The notes under the pieces are model-generated. The model was not told the DNA's origin. It ran no database searches and saw nothing but the letters and a program-made list of their open reading frames with translations. DNA of 64,000 nt from an uncultured Planctomycetota bacterium (GTDB lineage Bacteria > Planctomycetota > Planctomycetia > Isosphaerales > Isosphaeraceae). The stretch covers positions 3,456,001 through 3,520,000 of the forward strand of contig CAVTTN010000002.1 of the NCBI GenBank assembly GCA_963737655.1, read 5' to 3'. This document shows positions 10,125-18,880 of this stretch, one piece after another (positions within the stretch are counted from its first letter, which is position 1; each line of letters starts with the position of its first letter). The translations under genes and the position numbers were made by a program.

Positions 10125-11252
10125 TCAGCCGCGGAACACCAGGGCCGGGTCGAGCGAGGCGACCTTGCGGAACGAGACCGCCGAGGCCCCCACGCACAAC
10201 ACCAGGGTGCCCAGGAACACGACGACCGACAGGCTCGGGGCGATCTTCAGGCGAAGGTCGATCGACGCCATCAGCGGCCTCAGGGCGTACGCCATTCCCG
10301 CCCCGAGCACGAAGCCCACGACCGCCGCGAACGCCGCTTGCTTCGCCACGATCGCGAAGATGTCCGCGTTGGTCCCGCCGATCGCCTTGACGGTGGCGAA
10401 TTCCTTGATGTGCTCCATCGTCGACGTGTAGAGGGTCTGCGCCACCACGACCACGCCGACGAGCCCGCCGAGGAAGACGGTCATGATCATGTTCAGGCCG
10501 AGCCCGGTGTTGTCGGTCCAGTAATTGCGCGACCGGGTCGCCCACTCGGTTTTCGAACGGACGTCGTTGTACGGGAGCCTCCGGCGGATCTCGTCGCGGA
10601 CGGCCCGGGGATCGGCACCGGGCGAGAGCTTCACGAGGACGTAGGTCGTCCGGTTGTGGAGCTCCTGTCGCATCAGGGACTGCGCCACGCGATAATCCAT
10701 GAAGGCGACGGGGTTCGTGGTGAACGAGCGGGCCCCTCGGGTCCGGCCGAGGATCTTGAGCCTCTGGCCCGAGATCTCGCGGTAATCGCCGTCGGCGAAG
10801 TCGCCGAACCTCTTCTTCGCGGACTCGTCCAGAAGGACGTATTTCCCCCGGCGGAGGTCGCGAGGGTCGCCGGAGATCGTCTCCCACGGCAGTCCCCAGC
10901 GGCCGAAGTCTTCGAGGGCGTACACCACCACGTTCTCGGTCACTCCGGTGGGCAGCGCCACCCGGGCGAACCAGACGATCAGGTTGTCGGCCCTCTCGAC
11001 GCCGGGGATCGAGCGGACCCGGTGGACCATCTGTTCGCTGAACGTGTTCGAGAAGTCCACATTCGGCGTGTTCCTCGCCGTGACCCAGAGGTCGGCGGCC
11101 GTCGACTCGATCGTCACCGAGGCGTTGGAGAGCAGGCCCTCGAACAGGCCCACCTGCACGAAAACCAGGGTCACCGCGAAGGCGACGCCCGAGACCGTGA
11201 TCCCGAATCGGGTCAGGTCATGGAGCAAGATCTTCCGGGCGAGATCGACCAT
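10125..11252 (-). CDS. ABC transporter permease (FtsX/DevC-like)
   Basis: N-terminal TM, periplasmic ADLWV domain, EHIKEFATVKAIG, C-terminal LDPALVFRG. Confidence 0.9.
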   Translation of the reverse strand: MVDLARKILLHDLTRFGITVSGVAFAVTLVFVQVGLFEGLLSNASVTIESTAADLWVTARNTPNVDFSNTFSEQMVHRVRSIPGVERADNLIVWFARVALPTGVTENVVVYALEDFGRWGLPWETISGDPRDLRRGKYVLLDESAKKRFGDFADGDYREISGQRLKILGRTRGARSFTTNPVAFMDYRVAQSLMRQELHNRTTYVLVKLSPGADPRAVRDEIRRRLPYNDVRSKTEWATRSRNYWTDNTGLGLNMIMTVFLGGLVGVVVVAQTLYTSTMEHIKEFATVKAIGGTNADIFAIVAKQAAFAAVVGFVLGAGMAYALRPLMASIDLRLKIAPSLSVVVFLGTLVLCVGASAVSFRKVASLDPALVFRG

Positions 11253-11273
11253 CGGTCGGGCCTCCATCCGTCG

Positions 11274-11900
11274 TCAATCCGCGACCAGCCCGCGGAGCAG
11301 GGCAGCGGACGACACCCAGGCGGCGAGTTCGATGGGCCGCCAGTCGAACCAGGGGTCGTGCTTGTGGGTCATGTGCAGGGCCACGAGGCCGTGGGCGGCC
11401 GACCAGACGACCTGGGCGATCAGGTCGGCATCGTGCAGGTCGGGCCGGAACCGGCCGGCGGCCAGCGCTTCGGCCACCGTGGCGCGGAGGAAGGCGTAGG
11501 CGTCCTGATCGGGGTTGCCCCGGTCGATCTGGCTGTTCAGGACGGCTTTCTCCGGCTTCGTCGTCAGGAACATCAGCCGGTACGAACTCGGGTGGGTCAT
11601 CGCGAACTCCACGTAGATCCGTCCCAGCTCGCGGAGCCGCTCGATCGGGTCGCGGACCTTGGCCAGCTTCGCGAACGATTGCTGCAGGGCCGAGAAGTCG
11701 GCGTCGCAGATCTCCCGGAACAGCGCGTCCTTGTCCTCGAAGTGGGTGTAGAGGGCCGCCGCCGTGTAGTCGATCTTCCGGGCGATCTGCCTCATGCTCA
11801 CCGCCTCGAACCCCCTCTCGATGAAGAGCTCCCTCGCCGCGTCCAGGATCTTGCCCCGGACGGCGTCCTTCTCCTTCTGGCGTCGTTCCTTGCTGGGCAT
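11274..11900 (-). CDS. TetR/AcrR-family regulator
   Basis: ILDAARELFIERGFEAVSMRQIARKIDYTAAALYTHFEDKDAL. Confidence 0.95.
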   Translation of the reverse strand: MPSKERRQKEKDAVRGKILDAARELFIERGFEAVSMRQIARKIDYTAAALYTHFEDKDALFREICDADFSALQQSFAKLAKVRDPIERLRELGRIYVEFAMTHPSSYRLMFLTTKPEKAVLNSQIDRGNPDQDAYAFLRATVAEALAAGRFRPDLHDADLIAQVVWSAAHGLVALHMTHKHDPWFDWRPIELAAWVSSAALLRGLVAD

Positions 11901-12053: not shown

Positions 12054-13368
12054 ATGGCCGCCTCCCGGACCCGAAGCCTGTTCGACGACGACGACCAGCC
12101 GTCGCCGGTGGCGGCCGACGCCCCCCTGGCCGATCGGATGAGGCCGAGGACCCTGGAGGAGTTCGTCGGGCAAGCCCACCTGGTCGGCCCCGGCCGGCTC
12201 GTCCGGCGGCTGATCGAGGGCGGAGGGCCGTTGCCGTCCCTCATCTTGTGGGGAGGCCCGGGGACGGGCAAGACCACGCTGGGCCGACTCCTGGCCGAGC
12301 GGTCCGGCGCGCGGTTCGCGCCCCTGTCGGCCGTCCTGGCGGGCGTGAAGGAGCTCCGAGAGAGGATCGAGGAGGCGAGGGAGGCCCGGCGGCGAGGCGG
12401 CCGGACCGTTTTGTTCGTCGATGAGATCCATCGATTCAACAAGTCTCAGCAAGACGCGCTCCTGCCGGCCGTCGAGGACGGCACCGTCACCCTGATCGGC
12501 GCCACCACGGAAAACCCCTCGTTCGAGGTCAACGCCGCCCTGCTGTCCAGGTCGAGGGTCCTCACCCTCCAGCCGTTGACCGGCGAGGACGTCGCCGAGA
12601 TCCTCCGTCGGGCGATCGCCGACGCCGATCGAGGGGCTCGCGGCCTTCGGGCCGAAGGTTTTGGCCGAGGATCTTGCCCGTCTGGCGACGGCCTCGGGCG
12701 GGGATGCGCGGGTGGCGCTCACGGCCCTGGAAACGGCCGTCCTGGCCGCCCCGACCGCGGCCGACGGTTCCCGGACCGTCGATCGCGAGGCCCTGGCCGA
12801 GGCGATGGGCCGGGCTCGGTTCGCCTATGACAAGGGGGGCGAGGACCATTACAACCTCGCCTCGGCCCTGATCAAGTCGCTGCGAAACTCGGACGCGAAC
12901 GCCGGACTCTACTGGCTCGCCCGGTTGATCGAGGGCGGGGCCGACCCGGTGTTCATCGCCAGACGACTCTGCATCCTCGCCTCGGAGGACATCGGCCTTG
13001 CCGACCCGGCCGCGATGGTCCAGGCCGCCTCGGCGGCCCAGATCGTCCAGATGATCGGCCTGCCCGAAGGGCTCTATCCGCTCTCCCAGGCGACGGTTTA
13101 CCTGGCCAGGGCCCCCAAGTCCAACGCCCTGAAAACCGCCTACTTCGCCGCCGCCGAGGACGCCGCCGAGACGGCCAGGGAACCCGTCCCGCTCCACCTT
13201 CGCAACGCGGTGACGAATCTCATGAAGGCCGAGGGGTACGGGCAAGGATACCGATACGTCCACGACGACCCGGCCGCCCGGGGCGAGATGACTTGCCTCC
13301 CCGAGCGGCTCGCGGGCCGCGAGTATCTGCGATCGGAGGCCGACGACGCCAGTGTCGGAGGGGGATGA
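12054..13368 (+). CDS. rarA: Replication-associated recombination protein A (MgsA/RarA); frameshift near 12630-12660
   Basis: [76 protein letters not shown]. Confidence 0.95.
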
Positions 13369-13497: not shown

Positions 13498-16400
13498 TCA
13501 GGCGGGGGGTTCCTTCCAGAAGCCCTCCCGAGGAGCCGGCTTCCGCCCCGACAGGAACCGACCGGCTTTCTGGAGCAACCCCTCCACCGGCAGGGGCGGC
13601 GAGTACTTCCTCAGGTCGTCGGCCAGTTCCTTGGCCGTCGCATAACGACGCGATGGGTCGCTCACCAACGCCTTCTTGCAGACCTCCTCCAGGTCCGAGG
13701 GGACGGCCGGATGGACCTGGCGGGCGGGCCTGGCCTCGCCGACCATGATCGACTTGCAGATCTCCATCGGGCTCGAGCCCGGGAATGGCCAGTCCCCGGT
13801 CAGGGTCGTGAAGAGGATCACCCCGAGGGCGAACATGTCGTTCGAAACGCTCTGGGCCGTCCCGCCCTTCCAGACCTCAGGCGCGATGTAATGGGGGGTG
13901 CCGGAGATCATGCCCTCGGGGGACAGGAACGGGGCGAACCCCGAGAGCATGACCGAGCCGTCCTCCCCGATCAGGACGTTCCTCGTCTTCAGATTGCCGT
14001 GGATCAGCCCGCGAACGTGGCAGGAATGGACGATTTCGGCCAGGCGCGCCACGATGTCGGCGGCCCGGGCCGGTTCGAGCCGTTTTCCTCCTTCGAGGAG
14101 GTCCGCCAGGCTCGGCCACGGCAGATGCCGGGAGACCAGGAAGAGGCAGCCGTCGCCGGGGATCACTTCGAGGATCGGCATGAGGCCCGGGAGGTTGTCC
14201 TTCGAAAGCAACTCGACCCGGCGAATCAGAGAGGACTCGACCGACGGGTCGGCGGGCCGGGGGTACGAGCGGATCTCGACCTCGAAGCCCCGAGAAGGGT
14301 CGAACCCCTTGTATTTCGTGCCGATCCCGCCCCGGCCCACGACCTCCAGGCGATCGAACCGAGGGAGAGGGGGCACGGACCGGTCGATGCGTCCGGAGAT
14401 CTTCGGCGCCGGTTCCTGCGAGGCCGGGCGAATGGAGTCGAAGTCGTCGATCGTGTCGCCCAAGGAGCTGGAGTTCGTCGTCGGCACCGAAGGGGGAGGA
14501 GTCGAAGGCGGAGGGGCCGACCGCGGAGAGGCGGCCGGGGCGGGGAGGAACGCATCGAGGAATCGGGCGATCCCGAAATCCAGGAGCGAACCCCCACCTC
14601 CCAGGGCCCTGGACGGGCTGGAGAGGAACGACGCGCTCGATTCCGGGGCCCGGTAGCGGGGCATGGTCCGCGTCACAAGAGACGCCTCCGCCGGAGCTTC
14701 CACCGGCTGGGTGACCCGGAGGACCCGGCCGCCTGGATTCACGGTCTGGGAACGATCGATCGCCACGAACGCCGTGAAGCGGCAAAGAACCCCGTATTTC
14801 AGGCTCGTTTCGACGATCGTCCGCTCCAGGGCCCGGCGGTCTTCTCGGCCGATGGCGAAGCGGTCTTCGAGCTCTCGAACCTTCAGGCGGGCCCAGGCCG
14901 AAGCAACCGCCGGATTGGTTCGGATCGAGCCTGGGACCTGCTCTCGCCACGGCTCGCCCCGACCATCGAGGGCCGCCACGGCGATCGAACCCGGAGGACG
15001 CCCCAGGAATCGTCCCAGGATCAGCGCAGGGACGCCGGGGACGAGGTGGAGCCGGCCTCCCGGGACGACCGAATCGGCCTCGATCTCCCCTCCGATCGCT
15101 TCGAGCCTCAGGTCGGACAGGACCGGCGGGCCGATCCGCCGGCGGATGGTGTCGAGGACCTCGTCGAGCCGGTCCTCGGACTCCACGATCTCGCACGAGC
15201 CTCCGCCCAGGCCCGCCAGGCGGTGGAGGAACCCCTCGTTCACCGCCAGGTCGATCCCCAGGGCAAAGACCCGGACGCCTTCCAGCATCGGGGCGAGCGA
15301 TCGCAGGACCTGGTCCTCGTTGCCGATCTGGCCGTCGGTCACGAGGACGAGGAGGCGGTCCCGTCCCGGATCGTTTCGGGCCAGCTCGCGGGCCGCGGCG
15401 ACCAGGGCCGGGGCCATCTCGGTTCCTCCGTCGGCGCCCAGGTCGGCGAGGAACTCGACGGCGGCGAACCTCTGGCGATCTCCGGCCGGGACGAGCGACG
15501 GCCCCGCCTTCGGGGTCTGGATCGACCCGCTGAAGGCGATCAGTCCGAAGCGGTCCGGCTCGGCCAGGGAATCGATCATCCGGGCCATCGCCCGCCGGGC
15601 CGCCACGATCTTCCAGCCGTCCATGCTGCCGGATCGGTCGAGGACGAACATCACGTCCCTCGGCTTCCGGGCCGATCGCGGGCCGATGGCCGGGGGGATC
15701 ACCGTCAGGGCGAACGTCCCTCCCGAGACCGACTCGGGATGGACCGTCAGGGCCGACGCGATGCCCTCGCCCCCGAGGCGGAACCGCAGCACGAAGTCGC
15801 GATCGAGCCGGGCGTCCGGGTTCAGACGCACTCGAAACGCGCCGTCGATCTCCTCGGTGGTCGTCCCGAGAAGGCTCGAACGGAGGTCATCGACGGCCCC
15901 TCCCGACGAGTGGACGTCGATCGTCAGGGAGAGCCGGACCGGGTCGCGAAACCCGGGAAGGAGGACCGGAGGAGAGATCCGCGACGCATCGGGCACGGCG
16001 TCGGTGTCGATCGCCTGGCCGTCGCCGACCGGGTCGCCGGGCAAGGGCGTGCCGGGGATGTATCGGGGAGCGACGACCAGGGGGAACCGGAACGTGACCT
16101 CGCCGTCCTGATACGGCAGGACGCCGGCCATGGTGAACTCGATCTGGGCCTCTTCGCCCGGCATCAGGTTCCCCGCGCGGAGGGTGAAGACGCCCGGCCT
16201 CTCCTCCTCGGCGATCGAGGCCCGTCGCCCTTCGTCCAGGGCGGCCTCGTAGTCGCGACGCGCCTTGCCCCTCTCTTCCAGGAGCCCGTCGATGACCCGT
16301 CCGTTGACGACCATCCGGAAGCCGAGGACGGCCGCTCGATCGGGCAAGGGGAAAATATAGGTGGCTTCGAGAGCTTCGTCGGTCCCGTTGACGAACGTCT

Positions 16401-16563
16401 GGCGGAGGACGACCTGCGCGAGGAGGCCGTCGATCCGCCCCTCGATGCTCATGGCCTTCAGGGGCAGGTGGCCTCGGGCGGTCGCCAGGGCGCCGAAGCC
16501 CCGGTCGAGCCGTTCGGCCTCGGATCGGTCCTCGTCGTCGAGAAGGGGCAGCGGCCTGGTCAT
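13498..16563 (-). CDS. VIT + vWA domain protein fused to a C-terminal Ser/Thr pseudokinase domain
   Basis: VIT: QTFVN...LEATYIFPLP; vWA MIDAS DRSGS, GGTE, VTDG; Pro/Ser linker; kinase fold GRGGIG, HGNLKTRN, GTPHYIAPE, DMFALG. Confidence 0.9.
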   Translation of the reverse strand: MTRPLPLLDDEDRSEAERLDRGFGALATARGHLPLKAMSIEGRIDGLLAQVVLRQTFVNGTDEALEATYIFPLPDRAAVLGFRMVVNGRVIDGLLEERGKARRDYEAALDEGRRASIAEEERPGVFTLRAGNLMPGEEAQIEFTMAGVLPYQDGEVTFRFPLVVAPRYIPGTPLPGDPVGDGQAIDTDAVPDASRISPPVLLPGFRDPVRLSLTIDVHSSGGAVDDLRSSLLGTTTEEIDGAFRVRLNPDARLDRDFVLRFRLGGEGIASALTVHPESVSGGTFALTVIPPAIGPRSARKPRDVMFVLDRSGSMDGWKIVAARRAMARMIDSLAEPDRFGLIAFSGSIQTPKAGPSLVPAGDRQRFAAVEFLADLGADGGTEMAPALVAAARELARNDPGRDRLLVLVTDGQIGNEDQVLRSLAPMLEGVRVFALGIDLAVNEGFLHRLAGLGGGSCEIVESEDRLDEVLDTIRRRIGPPVLSDLRLEAIGGEIEADSVVPGGRLHLVPGVPALILGRFLGRPPGSIAVAALDGRGEPWREQVPGSIRTNPAVASAWARLKVRELEDRFAIGREDRRALERTIVETSLKYGVLCRFTAFVAIDRSQTVNPGGRVLRVTQPVEAPAEASLVTRTMPRYRAPESSASFLSSPSRALGGGGSLLDFGIARFLDAFLPAPAASPRSAPPPSTPPPSVPTTNSSSLGDTIDDFDSIRPASQEPAPKISGRIDRSVPPLPRFDRLEVVGRGGIGTKYKGFDPSRGFEVEIRSYPRPADPSVESSLIRRVELLSKDNLPGLMPILEVIPGDGCLFLVSRHLPWPSLADLLEGGKRLEPARAADIVARLAEIVHSCHVRGLIHGNLKTRNVLIGEDGSVMLSGFAPFLSPEGMISGTPHYIAPEVWKGGTAQSVSNDMFALGVILFTTLTGDWPFPGSSPMEICKSIMVGEARPARQVHPAVPSDLEEVCKKALVSDPSRRYATAKELADDLRKYSPPLPVEGLLQKAGRFLSGRKPAPREGFWKEPPA

Positions 16564-17123
16564 CGCTCGACTCCCGGGCGGTGGGGGATCAGTCCTCGGA
16601 GCTTCAAGAATTCCAGCAACGGGGCCGCCGCAAGCCGGATGACTCGCAAGTCCTCCGAGTCGAGCGGGCGCTGAGACGGGAAGGACACTGTCACGTCGGA
16701 CCCGAGATCGATCGTCCGTGACGAGGCCGAGGCGGGCGGCTCCGCCTCCGCAGGGCTCGGCGTCGGTGACGGGGGATCTTTCCAGAAGCTTCGGTCCCGA
16801 CCGGCCCGGGCCATCGTCTCCAGGGCCGAGCTGGAAAGGCCGATCAACTGCTCCTGGATCTCCGAGAGGCGTCTCCCCTCGGCCTGAAGCCGTTTGATCG
16901 AAACCAGTTGCAGCAAATGCCTCCGGCCATAGAGGGCCGTTCGGCCCCTCATCTCCGAGGGACGATCGAGCAGGCCGAGCGTCGTGTAATAGCGGATCGT
17001 CCGCAGGTCGGGGACATCGCGGACCCGTCCGCTGGGGACCCCCTCGTAGCCTTCCGAGAGCACCTCGGCGACCCGATCGCGGAGCTCGTCGATCGTCCAG
17101 AGGGCGGGTTCGTCGATCTTCAT
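16560..17123 (-). CDS. MerR-type HTH regulator, translationally coupled to the VIT-vWA gene
   Basis: PDLRTIRYYTTLGLLDRP...ALYGRRHLLQLVSIKRLQAEG; ATGA overlap with the downstream gene. Confidence 0.9.
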   Translation of the reverse strand: MKIDEPALWTIDELRDRVAEVLSEGYEGVPSGRVRDVPDLRTIRYYTTLGLLDRPSEMRGRTALYGRRHLLQLVSIKRLQAEGRRLSEIQEQLIGLSSSALETMARAGRDRSFWKDPPSPTPSPAEAEPPASASSRTIDLGSDVTVSFPSQRPLDSEDLRVIRLAAAPLLEFLKLRGLIPHRPGVER

Positions 17124-17158
17124 GACAGTGTTATACGGGCGTCATGCAACACTGTCAA
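17123..17158 (-). promoter_or_regulatory. Near-consensus sigma-70 promoter giving a leaderless mRNA, overlapped by a 10-bp inverted repeat
   Basis: Minus strand TTGACA-N17-TATAAC-N6-ATG; TGACAGTGTT (17123-17132) and AACACTGTCA (17148-17157). Confidence 0.8.
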
Positions 17159-17296: not shown

Positions 17297-18652
17297 TCAG
17301 GCGAGCTCGGCGAGGGCGGCGTCGACGATCGCCTCGTGGGCCGCCGCCTTGAGGTTCCTGGTCGTCACCTGGAGCTTGACCGTCTTGGCGTGCACGACCT
17401 TCTTGACGACCTTCTTCTTGTGGTGCTTCTTCGTCGCGGTCGCGGCGGTCGAGGCCGGCGCGGTGACCGTGGAAGAGGTGGGCGTCGAGGTGGTCGTGAC
17501 GGCCACCAGGTCGTTCACCAGGGCGGTGCCGTTGGGCGTGCCCAGGCCGTTCGAGGTGCTCGCCGAGGTCGTCGCGGCCGTGGTGGCGAACGGGAAGAAG
17601 ATGGGGAAGGAGCCTCCCCAGACATAGCCGCCATAGCCGCCGGAGCTGGTGGCCTGAGACACGGAGTTGTAGTCGGTCGAGGCGACCGCATACAGGGCCG
17701 GCAGGGTCTGCGAGGGGCCGTCGAGGCTGGACTGGCCGGCGAAGTAACGGCCCTCGTCGGCGATGGCGACGATCGCCGCCCAGGCCGGCGAGCCGAGGCT
17801 GGTCCCGCCCACGGTCCTCCAGCCGCTCTGGCCGTTGGTGCTGGACGTCGAATAGACCGAGACGCCGGTCCGGGGGTCGGCCACGAACGAGACGTCCGGC
17901 GTGCTCCTCTGCCCGGTGGACTGGACTTTGCTTTGATAGCTCGGCTCGGCCTCGAACTGGCTGTAGCCGCCCCCGCTGCTGGACCAGGCCGTCTCCGAGG
18001 CGATCGCCCCGGTGCTGTCCAGGTTCAGCGTCGTCCCGCCGACGGAAAGCACATTGGGCGAGGCCGCCGGCCACTCGGCGCCGGCCTGGATGCCGCTGTC
18101 GCCGCTGGCGGCGACGAAGGTGATCGGCGTATGACCGGCCGGCGTGGTGAAGTAGGAATCATAGGCCGTCTCGCCCGAGAATTCGGGGAATCCCCAGCTC
18201 ATCGAGACGGTCGAGACGCCCGGCGTGTTCCGGGCCGTGTTGAGGGCCGACATGAGGTCCGGCAGGCTCTCCGACGCCGCCTCGACCACCAGGATCTTGG
18301 CCCCGGGAGCGATCGCGTGGGCCCACTCGACGTCCAGCTCCTCCTCGCCGGACCAGCCCACGTCGGTATTGTTGCCCGCCTGGTTCACCACGGTCAAAGA
18401 CGGTGTCGGCAGTCCGTAGGCCGAATCGAAGACTTGCAAGTTCGCGGCGAGGTTCGGGTCGTGGTAGGCCTCGATCAGGGCGATCGTCTGGCCCGCCCCA
18501 TCCCCTTTCACGGCCCCGCTCGACGAGTTGAAAACGATGGCGTCCAGGCCGTAGGCGTGGGTGATCTGGGCCGGGGACAGCCCGGAGAGCAAGCATCGAT
18601 CATCCAGACGATCGACGTCCGGACGCAGAACGCGGCGTCGGGTGGGGGACAT
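17297..18652 (-). CDS. Secreted S53 (sedolisin/kumamolisin-like) peptidase
   Basis: LDDRCLLS N-terminal motif; EEELDVE, SMSWG, ASGDSG, PDVS, GGTSL catalytic motifs. Confidence 0.9.
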   Translation of the reverse strand: MSPTRRRVLRPDVDRLDDRCLLSGLSPAQITHAYGLDAIVFNSSSGAVKGDGAGQTIALIEAYHDPNLAANLQVFDSAYGLPTPSLTVVNQAGNNTDVGWSGEEELDVEWAHAIAPGAKILVVEAASESLPDLMSALNTARNTPGVSTVSMSWGFPEFSGETAYDSYFTTPAGHTPITFVAASGDSGIQAGAEWPAASPNVLSVGGTTLNLDSTGAIASETAWSSSGGGYSQFEAEPSYQSKVQSTGQRSTPDVSFVADPRTGVSVYSTSSTNGQSGWRTVGGTSLGSPAWAAIVAIADEGRYFAGQSSLDGPSQTLPALYAVASTDYNSVSQATSSGGYGGYVWGGSFPIFFPFATTAATTSASTSNGLGTPNGTALVNDLVAVTTTSTPTSSTVTAPASTAATATKKHHKKKVVKKVVHAKTVKLQVTTRNLKAAAHEAIVDAALAELA

Positions 18653-18880
18653 GGATTCGTCCGACGGGAGCTCAGGGATGGAGGGACCGTCCATGGTGCC
18701 GGGCGACAATCCGTCGAGCTACGATATCTTAGCGTCCTCCCGCCGGCCCTGCGCGCGCCTTTCTGAGATTCCCGCGCGATCGCATGAGAGGATGGGCAAA
18801 CACGGAAGAGTCGGCGGGCGATGCCGAGCCGGTCGGGCGGCCGAGACCGCCTCGAACCGACCCGGACGACCCTCAAGACC

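Follow-up and report, generated by a model that had tools for sequence, protein, structure and literature searches.

Why would a bacterium maintain a kinase domain that has lost its catalytic residues, at the end of a large VIT-vWA protein whose gene is coupled to that of a MerR-type regulator? The question is raised by a locus of an uncultured planctomycete of the family Isosphaeraceae, found in a stretch of 64,000 nucleotides (GenBank assembly GCA_963737655.1, contig CAVTTN010000002.1, positions 3,456,001–3,520,000) that we refer to as the window and in whose coordinates its features are given. On the reverse strand, where all features of the operon lie, a merR-type gene encoding 187 amino acids (16560..17123; Pfam MerR_1, E 8e-9) is followed by a gene for a protein of 1021 amino acids (13498..16563), in which Pfam recognizes VIT (residues 35–144, E 1e-31), VWA (303–459) and Pkinase (737–978, E 1e-25) domains. 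The two open reading frames (ORFs) overlap by the ATGA at 16563–16560. A first-pass annotation of the sequence had described this pair, its ATGA coupling, an intact MIDAS (metal ion-dependent adhesion site) and a Pro-Ser linker, and ORF calls, Pfam and alignments agree on all of these. It had also treated the kinase as a defining part of the system, a view that did not survive comparison with other genomes: a fused kinase occurred in none of 76 loci from GTDB, and the content of its position varied by lineage. The operator boxes, an FW motif common to both proteins and the exchange of slot contents, all described below, were not part of that annotation. The conserved unit is a merR gene with a VIT-vWA core, and it is found in Actinomycetota, Myxococcota and Planctomycetota.

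Distribution of the merR/VIT-vWA unit

The GTDB loci came from Actinomycetota, Myxococcota, Gemmataceae, Entotheonella and others, and merR lay directly upstream of the core gene in 68 of the 76. Among the eight loci without it, five ended at most 400 bp from a contig edge and three were divergent homologues. Translational coupling, first proposed from the window copy, was borne out by a 4-bp stop/start overlap of the pair at 59 of 64 resolvable loci. Closer to the window, MerR matches were present in 29 of 151 genomes of relatives and core matches in 32 of 121 genomes of the family; in a sample of the phylum, 21 of 401 genomes contained matches. Within a set of 29 retrieved loci, several of which were truncated or frameshifted, the core adjoined merR in 28 and kinase sequence directly followed the core in 16. 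A plasmid collection yielded two matches to the core only, the better one on a record of 11.9 Mb, and a metagenome scan yielded two uninformative loci among the matches listed. No description of the pair or of its operator was found in the literature searched, subscription papers and supplements lying outside that scope. Two loci were arranged unusually: in L126, merR has no VIT gene next to it and runs into recombinase-like sequence, and L125 has an extra frameshifted merR fragment (near 11156–11403) close to the intact operon.

Architecture of the large protein and its variable slot

The N-terminal part of the large protein (P0001), residues 1–625 (14689..16563), is an ITIH/PARP4-like core: it contains VIT, vWA and hybrid domains with a DxSxS/T/D MIDAS, and profile searches matched it to PARP4 (E 5e-57) and ITIH4 (E 8.5e-44). 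The MIDAS residues (D309-x-S311-x-S313, T381 and D410) did not vary in either of two alignments, with 103 and 79 sequences. The core is followed by a hypervariable linker (residues 626–732; 14368..14688) with 16.8% Pro, 17.8% Ser and predicted local distance difference test (pLDDT) scores below 50, then by the pseudokinase domain (residues 733–989; 13597..14367), delineated by Pfam, profile, AlphaFold, Foldseek and substitution analyses. The C-terminal tail (13498..13596), a candidate membrane anchor or docking motif, contains a basic amphipathic helix (GLLQKAGRFL, 13581–13552) and a REGFWK motif (13530–13513). AlphaFold2 (AF2) predicted the core and the kinase with confidence and the linker between them (616–726) and the tail as disordered, and Foldseek returned ITIH1, PknB and the vWA protein ArnB as structural matches. 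A high Pro content between the core and the C-terminal domain is general, with a median of 16.2% over 85 proteins. Neither a signal peptide nor a transmembrane (TM) segment was detected in the large protein, and it was rejected as a marine proteobacterial sortase target (TIGR03788), a family marked by a signal peptide and an LPxTG anchor, as its match reached 369 bits against a cut-off of 552. An Asp/Pro-rich loop of the core (residues 163–207; 15943–16077) is highly conserved and predicted to be disordered; it may fold upon binding a partner or a metal. A second, distant VIT-vWA gene in the host genome (G000:C2:5169640–5171322, reverse strand) has a signal peptide and is of the exported type.

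The kinase occupies a slot that is flanked by the Pro-rich linker and the FWK tail and holds a helical bundle in most family members. In Gemmata it is filled by a PP2C domain whose C-terminal half precedes the N-terminal half (L007:5001–8006 and L013:5001–8051), and a circularly permuted PP2C was also seen in the slot of L122; the acidic metal-binding motifs of these three domains appear intact. The Mycobacterium loci L024 and L067 have DUF4349 at this position, and P0088 combines a short kinase remnant with a helical-repeat region. The slot of L132 (1024–3828, reverse strand) presumably contains a GspE/PilB-like N-terminal fragment that ends before the ATPase core. The large protein of L132 has no FW tail. 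By these sequence comparisons, the kinase fills a variable slot in a lineage-specific manner and does not define the system.

The kinase domain and its family

AlphaFold folded the kinase domain at a pLDDT of ~90, and its superposition on PknB by Foldseek gave root mean square deviations (rmsd) of 2.4–6 Å; it has the fold of a Hanks-type Ser/Thr kinase without the residues of an active one. When it is compared with a profile of the canonical kinases of the host, the VAIK Lys and the αC Glu are both replaced by Arg, the HRD Asp by Asn and the DFG Asp by Gly. The initial impression that every catalytic landmark was altered is correct for these four positions and went too far for the catalytic loop, in which H855, K859 and N862 are kept, as is the Gly loop. 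A pseudokinase being defined here by a retained fold and the loss of at least one of the β3 Lys, catalytic Asp and DFG Asp (K/D/D), the window domain, in which all three are gone, is a pseudokinase and predicted to be catalytically dead. The same replacements rule out an active kinase in the window, as judged from its residues. The known defence kinases PD-T4-6, MADS6 and PglW were rejected as identities, the matches being to the kinase domain alone, without partner genes, and a search of the ESM Atlas with the domain led to generic kinase clusters.

A protein search gave 4010 matches in 8000 scored candidates, of which the best 120, a set biased to full-length fusions, were analysed. The nearest homologues that carry a name are labelled Isosphaeraceae, in line with a host from this family. 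Kinase sequence was present in 104 of them (103 by phmmer, and P0119), and residue retention was scored with a profile built from 73 canonical kinase domains of the host as the reference. None of K/D/D is kept in 35 fusions, one in 34, two in 30 and all three in five (P0016, P0020, P0024, P0028 and P0033), and each of these five has lost the catalytic-loop Asn. The catalytic loss claimed for the window copy is therefore family-wide, with at least one of K/D/D gone in 99 of 104 fusions and the full set of K, D, D and Asn in none; what is conserved is the loss and not a single set of substitutions, as the replacements at catalytic sites vary between clades. The N-lobe is absent in 15 of 104 fusions, on several separate branches of the tree. 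The conserved parts are αE, the PE motif, αF and αH–αI, and αG is not conserved. Compared in this way, the sequences form a pseudokinase family with graded loss, from near-intact members that keep K, D and D down to members with a C-lobe only. In one locus (L115:1248–4343), a second copy of the activation segment, through the APE motif, lies inside the linker. In a FastTree phylogeny of 149 cores, the kinase bearers fell into one clade (support 0.80, arbitrary root), which includes four members in which no kinase domain was detected and is nested among helical-tail forms of planctomycete type. A single origin of the fused kinases relative to host kinases was not rejected by an approximately unbiased (AU) test (0.75; 30 fusion rows, 65 host rows and 125 columns), and the family, of ~100 bacterial pseudokinases, probably has a single origin.

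Selection on the kinase was estimated from the ratio of nonsynonymous to synonymous substitution rates (dN/dS) by the Nei-Gojobori method, with reciprocal-best active kinases of >60% identity as the reference. The ratio was 0.50 between the window and G001 (95% confidence interval (CI) 0.35–0.71; dS 0.98, near saturation) and 0.43 between G153 and G154 (95% CI 0.27–0.67; dS 0.25); dS was near saturation in most pairs and clearly unsaturated in one only. The corresponding values were 0.27 and 0.20 for the core, and the medians of the active kinases were 0.24 (15 of 19 pairs) and 0.18 (9 of 12 pairs). Since both kinase intervals exclude 1 and both ratios exceed the active-kinase medians, the domain is maintained under purifying but relaxed selection, and its neutral decay is ruled out by these intervals. 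In several relatives, frameshifts occur in or ahead of the kinase; they strike the conserved core too, which suggests assembly indels. Independent full-length homologues, and G001 with its identical arrangement, rule out that the fusion itself arose as an assembly artefact.

Variation within the kinase was uneven. Across 53 pairs with a core identity of 95% or more, which come mostly from one clade and in which 90% clustering favours divergent pairs, the catalytic/activation segment was 55% identical versus 72–79% elsewhere in the kinase. In P0041, P0046 and P0052, the ~100 residues from the catalytic loop to αG are 34–37% identical to alleles with 97–99% identical cores and 53–56% identical to the distant P0093, and αH–αI stays at 94–96% identity (AU p 0.003, for a test group picked after the data were seen). 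These mosaic identities point to the exchange, in one clade, of a segment that faces the substrate; chimeric assembly could also produce them.

Predicted promoter, operator-like boxes and MerR

A leaderless promoter/operator, with conserved counterparts ahead of merR at related loci, is predicted at 17123..17158. It contains a −35 TTGACA (17158–17153) and a −10-like TATAAC (17135–17130) separated by a 17-bp spacer, together with two palindromic boxes, TGACAGTGTTG over the −35 (17157–17147) and TAACACTGTCA (17133–17123), the final base of which is the A of the ATG. The distance from TTGACA to the merR start is 35–39 bp in 69 of 69 loci, which implies a leaderless transcript. A consensus promoter scan returned no sigma-70 site, since the final T is missing from the −10. 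Upstream regions could be parsed for 96 loci (two more were unparseable), and the −35 carried TGACA[G/C]TGTCA exactly in 75 of them and in 87 when one mismatch was allowed, part of this agreement arising by construction, as TTGACA had served to locate the start of each region. By a lenient count without a null, 95 of 96 regions had an additional box (three mismatches or fewer), usually at +13/14 and in the window's family at +22 to +26. The box pair of the window is the sole pair (at most two mismatches, 10–30 bp apart) in the 7.6-Mb host genome, and no wider regulon was apparent there, the yield being only five single one-mismatch boxes and the one pair; three distant single boxes with one mismatch lie at G000:C2:4594339, 4614964 and 4653800. 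The conserved palindromes on the promoter make it likely that MerR binds TGACA[G/C]TGTCA boxes and represses its own promoter, as the first-pass annotation had suggested in proposing autoregulation.

A third operator-like box, TGACAGTGTCC (16683..16693), is located within the merR coding sequence, ~120 bp ahead of the large gene, and is a candidate auxiliary operator. Internal boxes were found in 27 of 85 merR genes, compared with a mean of 1.95 (maximum 4) over 40 synonymous resamplings and with 4 matches in 152 kb of core genes, and they occur in two reading frames. Their carriers are mostly related Pseudonocardiaceae, and none of 20 further planctomycete loci contained one.

MerR (P0002) is composed of a winged helix-turn-helix (HTH; residues ~8–105), a flexible linker with RDRSFWK (109–115) and a small C-terminal domain of a β-hairpin and a helix (~135–176). 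The winged HTH matched GlnR, TnrA, CvkR and CarA (VIA Z 9.1, 8.8, 7.8 and 6.7, respectively), with rmsd values of 2.1–2.7 Å over 76–79 residues. Among these MerR-like repressors of the same fold, GlnR/TnrA and CarA are controlled by a partner protein. The window protein differs from all four in its C-terminal domain, its FW linker motif and its 11-bp palindrome repeated at 13–14 or 22–26 bp. A classical metal-sensing MerR activator was rejected: the winged HTH is present, but the protein has no Cys and hence no Cys metal site, a short helix runs into the flexible linker in place of a long dimerization helix, NCBIfam scores are far below their cut-offs, and the promoter spacer is 17 and not 19 bp. 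An ESM Atlas search with the C-terminal domain returned leads below 0.9 only, and a comparison of MerR with phage sequences gave no match. A distant subfamily (L290–L297) has a short MerR without the FW linker, operator repeats rich in TACAG/CTGTA, and FWE or WWAFWE tails on the large protein.

The FW motif and a possible contact between MerR and the core

A basic-x-x-FW motif is common to both proteins of the operon. In MerR it lies in the otherwise variable linker (F113 and W114; 16779..16799), where FW was found in 64 of 69 proteins; in the large protein, FW[KR] occurs within the last 25 residues of 98 of the best 120 homologues. Of 85 complete merR-linked large proteins, 75 end in FW, five in neither FW nor a TM helix, and five in a TM helix, the latter in two separate lineages. 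The loci with a TM helix instead of the FWK tail are L024 and L067 (Mycobacterium), L280, L284 and L287. One kinase clade without FWK has gained GWF/GWL just upstream. The TM replacements and this gain favour a membrane anchor as the role of the tail, with docking into a pocket as the alternative. AF2 predicted neither docking of the FWK tail on its own core nor docking of the MerR FW in the monomer, an amphipathic-helix scan of the linkers gave only a modest excess over shuffles, and a literature search on a membrane role of the FW motif found nothing relevant.

The predicted complex of MerR and the core had an ipSAE (interaction prediction score from aligned errors) of 0.39, versus 0.00 for the best control, and at least 65% of its contacts were shared between runs; the partner pLDDT was 61–67, and no interface is given. 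Of 157 solved pairs, 116 attained the ipSAE mark, as did 2 of 215 mismatched pairs; passes at 0.60 or below account for only 18 of the 157 solved pairs and for both mismatched ones. Passes at the level of MerR and the core are more often wrong than right unless the contact is likely beforehand, and translational coupling raises that prior. The modelling lends weak support to a contact between MerR and the VIT-vWA core.

Comparison with known systems

In MoxR-vWA ternary systems (VMAP type), inactive kinases and other dead host enzymes fused to vWA proteins have been proposed to be decoys (Kaur et al. 2020; PMC7159879, main text). As presented there, these systems share with the merR/VIT-vWA unit a vWA protein with a variable, often inactive host-derived C-terminal module, the presence of catalytically disrupted Ser/Thr kinases among the modules, and a host range of actinobacteria, planctomycetes and deltaproteobacteria (PMC7159879). 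Unlike them, the unit has no conserved third gene, its core is of the VIT-vWA-hybrid type, and its MerR partner has its own operator; neither a MoxR ATPase nor a VMAP, iSTAND or FtsH third gene was met in the ORF clustering of 106 loci, which included no MoxR-specific profile. Neither VIT nor MerR appears as a word in the main text of PMC7159879, the supplements of which may list such architectures. The unit is not a VMAP member, but it is similar in the logic of its slot.

The core is homologous to that of human ITIH4 and ITIH1 (PDB 9c4f and 6fpy) and to the VIT-vWA region of PARP4 (11jf), with an intact MIDAS, and as in ITIH4 it is followed by a Pro-rich linker and a separate C-terminal domain in that order. 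ITIH4 is, according to the available text, a MIDAS-dependent bait-and-trap that captures proteases after cleavage within a region of 17.3% Pro (PMC7793589). Unlike ITIH4, ITIH1 and PARP4, the window protein is bacterial, has no signal peptide, is coupled to a transcription factor, and carries a kinase in place of the β-propeller. A VIT-vWA arrangement with a conserved MIDAS is also known from VWA5A/BCSC-1 and Dictyostelium Vwa1, which are cytoplasmic and act through protein contacts; the accessible part of that account mentions bacterial relatives, and the MerR partner and the pseudokinase, features of the window system, are not met in it for VWA5A or Vwa1 (PMC10539598). Sulfolobus ArnA-ArnB (PDB 8s05) similarly combines a scaffold of vWA, β-sandwich and helical C-terminus with a partner and control of gene expression; in the portion of the source available, it differs by having no VIT, an FHA protein as the partner, and regulation by separate active kinases (PMC6509490).

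Possible functions of the pseudokinase

The explanation that we favour, tentatively and with a good deal of doubt, is that the unit encodes a self-repressed, ITIH4-like intracellular bait-and-trap scaffold with the predicted-dead kinase as the bait. It is favoured because of the ITIH4-like order of parts and the inactive-kinase decoys of MoxR-vWA systems; slot swapping, catalytic loss with the fold kept, the fast change of the catalytic/activation segment and the segment exchange at the substrate face in one clade were also counted for it, as was, weakly, the modelled contact of MerR with the core. MerR would sit on TGACA[G/C]TGTCA boxes over the −35 and −10/+1 and keep the operon low, and the FWK tail would tether the large protein at the inner membrane. 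A protein targeting the many Ser/Thr kinases of the host would engage the kinase copy or cut the linker, the candidates being an effector or protease from a phage or a competitor, and a host kinase partner. The MIDAS core would then clamp the engaging protein, and the MerR–core contact would relay the clamped state to the promoter. Several results weigh against this scheme. Clustering of the ORFs of 106 loci showed no gene other than the two core ones to be shared across lineages, the Actinomadura and Actinophytocola copies have stable genus-level neighbourhoods that are not obvious defence islands, and PADLOC returned nothing in the window beyond generic kinase matches. The helical bundle of most family members has no recognizable look-alike in the host, and a linker with its proportion of Pro is not specific for a trap. 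No kinase segment had a dN/dS significantly above 1, as positive selection would give, and the mosaic alleles are metagenome assemblies from a single clade, sampled after 90% clustering and with a post hoc AU group. The N-lobe is dispensable and P0105 retains little beyond αF–αI, which fits a spacer equally well.

Such a spacer is the main rival explanation. In the form in which it was considered, a host kinase was captured once, its helical C-lobe replaced the ancestral helical bundle in presenting the FWK tail, and the rest decays. The restriction of conservation to αE, αF and αH–αI, the repeated loss of the N-lobe, a kinase dN/dS about twice that of active orthologues, the clade-specific catalytic replacements and the single origin left standing by the AU test were counted in its favour. 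We consider this structural passenger somewhat unlikely, as the N-lobe is kept in 89 of 104 fusions, with a dN/dS of 0.35–0.38 in two pairs, and a spacer needs neither an exchange of precisely the segment that faces the substrate nor repeated capture of signalling- or motor-type domains. A regulatory role, the scaffold reading of the first-pass annotation, in which the pseudokinase pairs with, or is phosphorylated by, active host Ser/Thr kinases and couples phosphorylation state to MerR release, would be ArnA-ArnB-like, in keeping with the structural match to ArnB and with the binding of its partner through a phosphorylated C-terminus, as reported in the available part of PMC6509490. At least 73 canonical kinase domains are encoded by the host, PP2C fills the same slot in Gemmata, and the linker is rich in Ser. 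This role is nevertheless quite improbable, given an activation-segment Thr that 39% of fusions keep, against 95% for host kinases, an unconserved αG, a predominance of kinase-free family members, and the dispensability of the N-lobe, which is the dimer surface of PknB. Retention of K/D/D in five of 104 fusions and the frameshifts in relatives could suggest a kinase that is decaying neutrally or still active; the loss of the Asn in those five, the dN/dS intervals and the absence of K/D/D from the window copy make this very improbable.

If the bait-and-trap explanation is true, a role in bacterial surveillance would be tied to the core known from human ITIH4, PARP4 and VWA5A. A broader version, which we regard as unlikely, is that merR/VIT-vWA cassettes are a bacterial integrated-decoy receptor, with a membrane-tethered, ITIH4-like MIDAS clamp, exchangeable copies of host targets, in this case the substrate face of the kinase with recombination between alleles, and FW-mediated derepression once an attacker that engages or cuts the bait is captured; if true, the trap mechanism of ITIH4 would go back to bacteria, and the cassettes would provide a readable catalogue of the targets of phage or competitor effectors. 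What is now defined is a widespread two-gene unit that has a precisely placed candidate operator, a motif that is a candidate for docking or anchoring, and a series of natural swaps at one slot.

Neighbouring genes

Upstream of the operon lies an ORF on the reverse strand (17297–18709) with what we take to be motifs of a sedolisin/S53-like peptidase and an export motif of planctomycete type. It had no Pfam match at E 0.01 and is not conserved beside the merR/VIT-vWA operon. On the other side, rarA/mgsA (12054–13368, forward strand) is broken across two frames near 12660–12830, by a sequencing indel or as a pseudogene.

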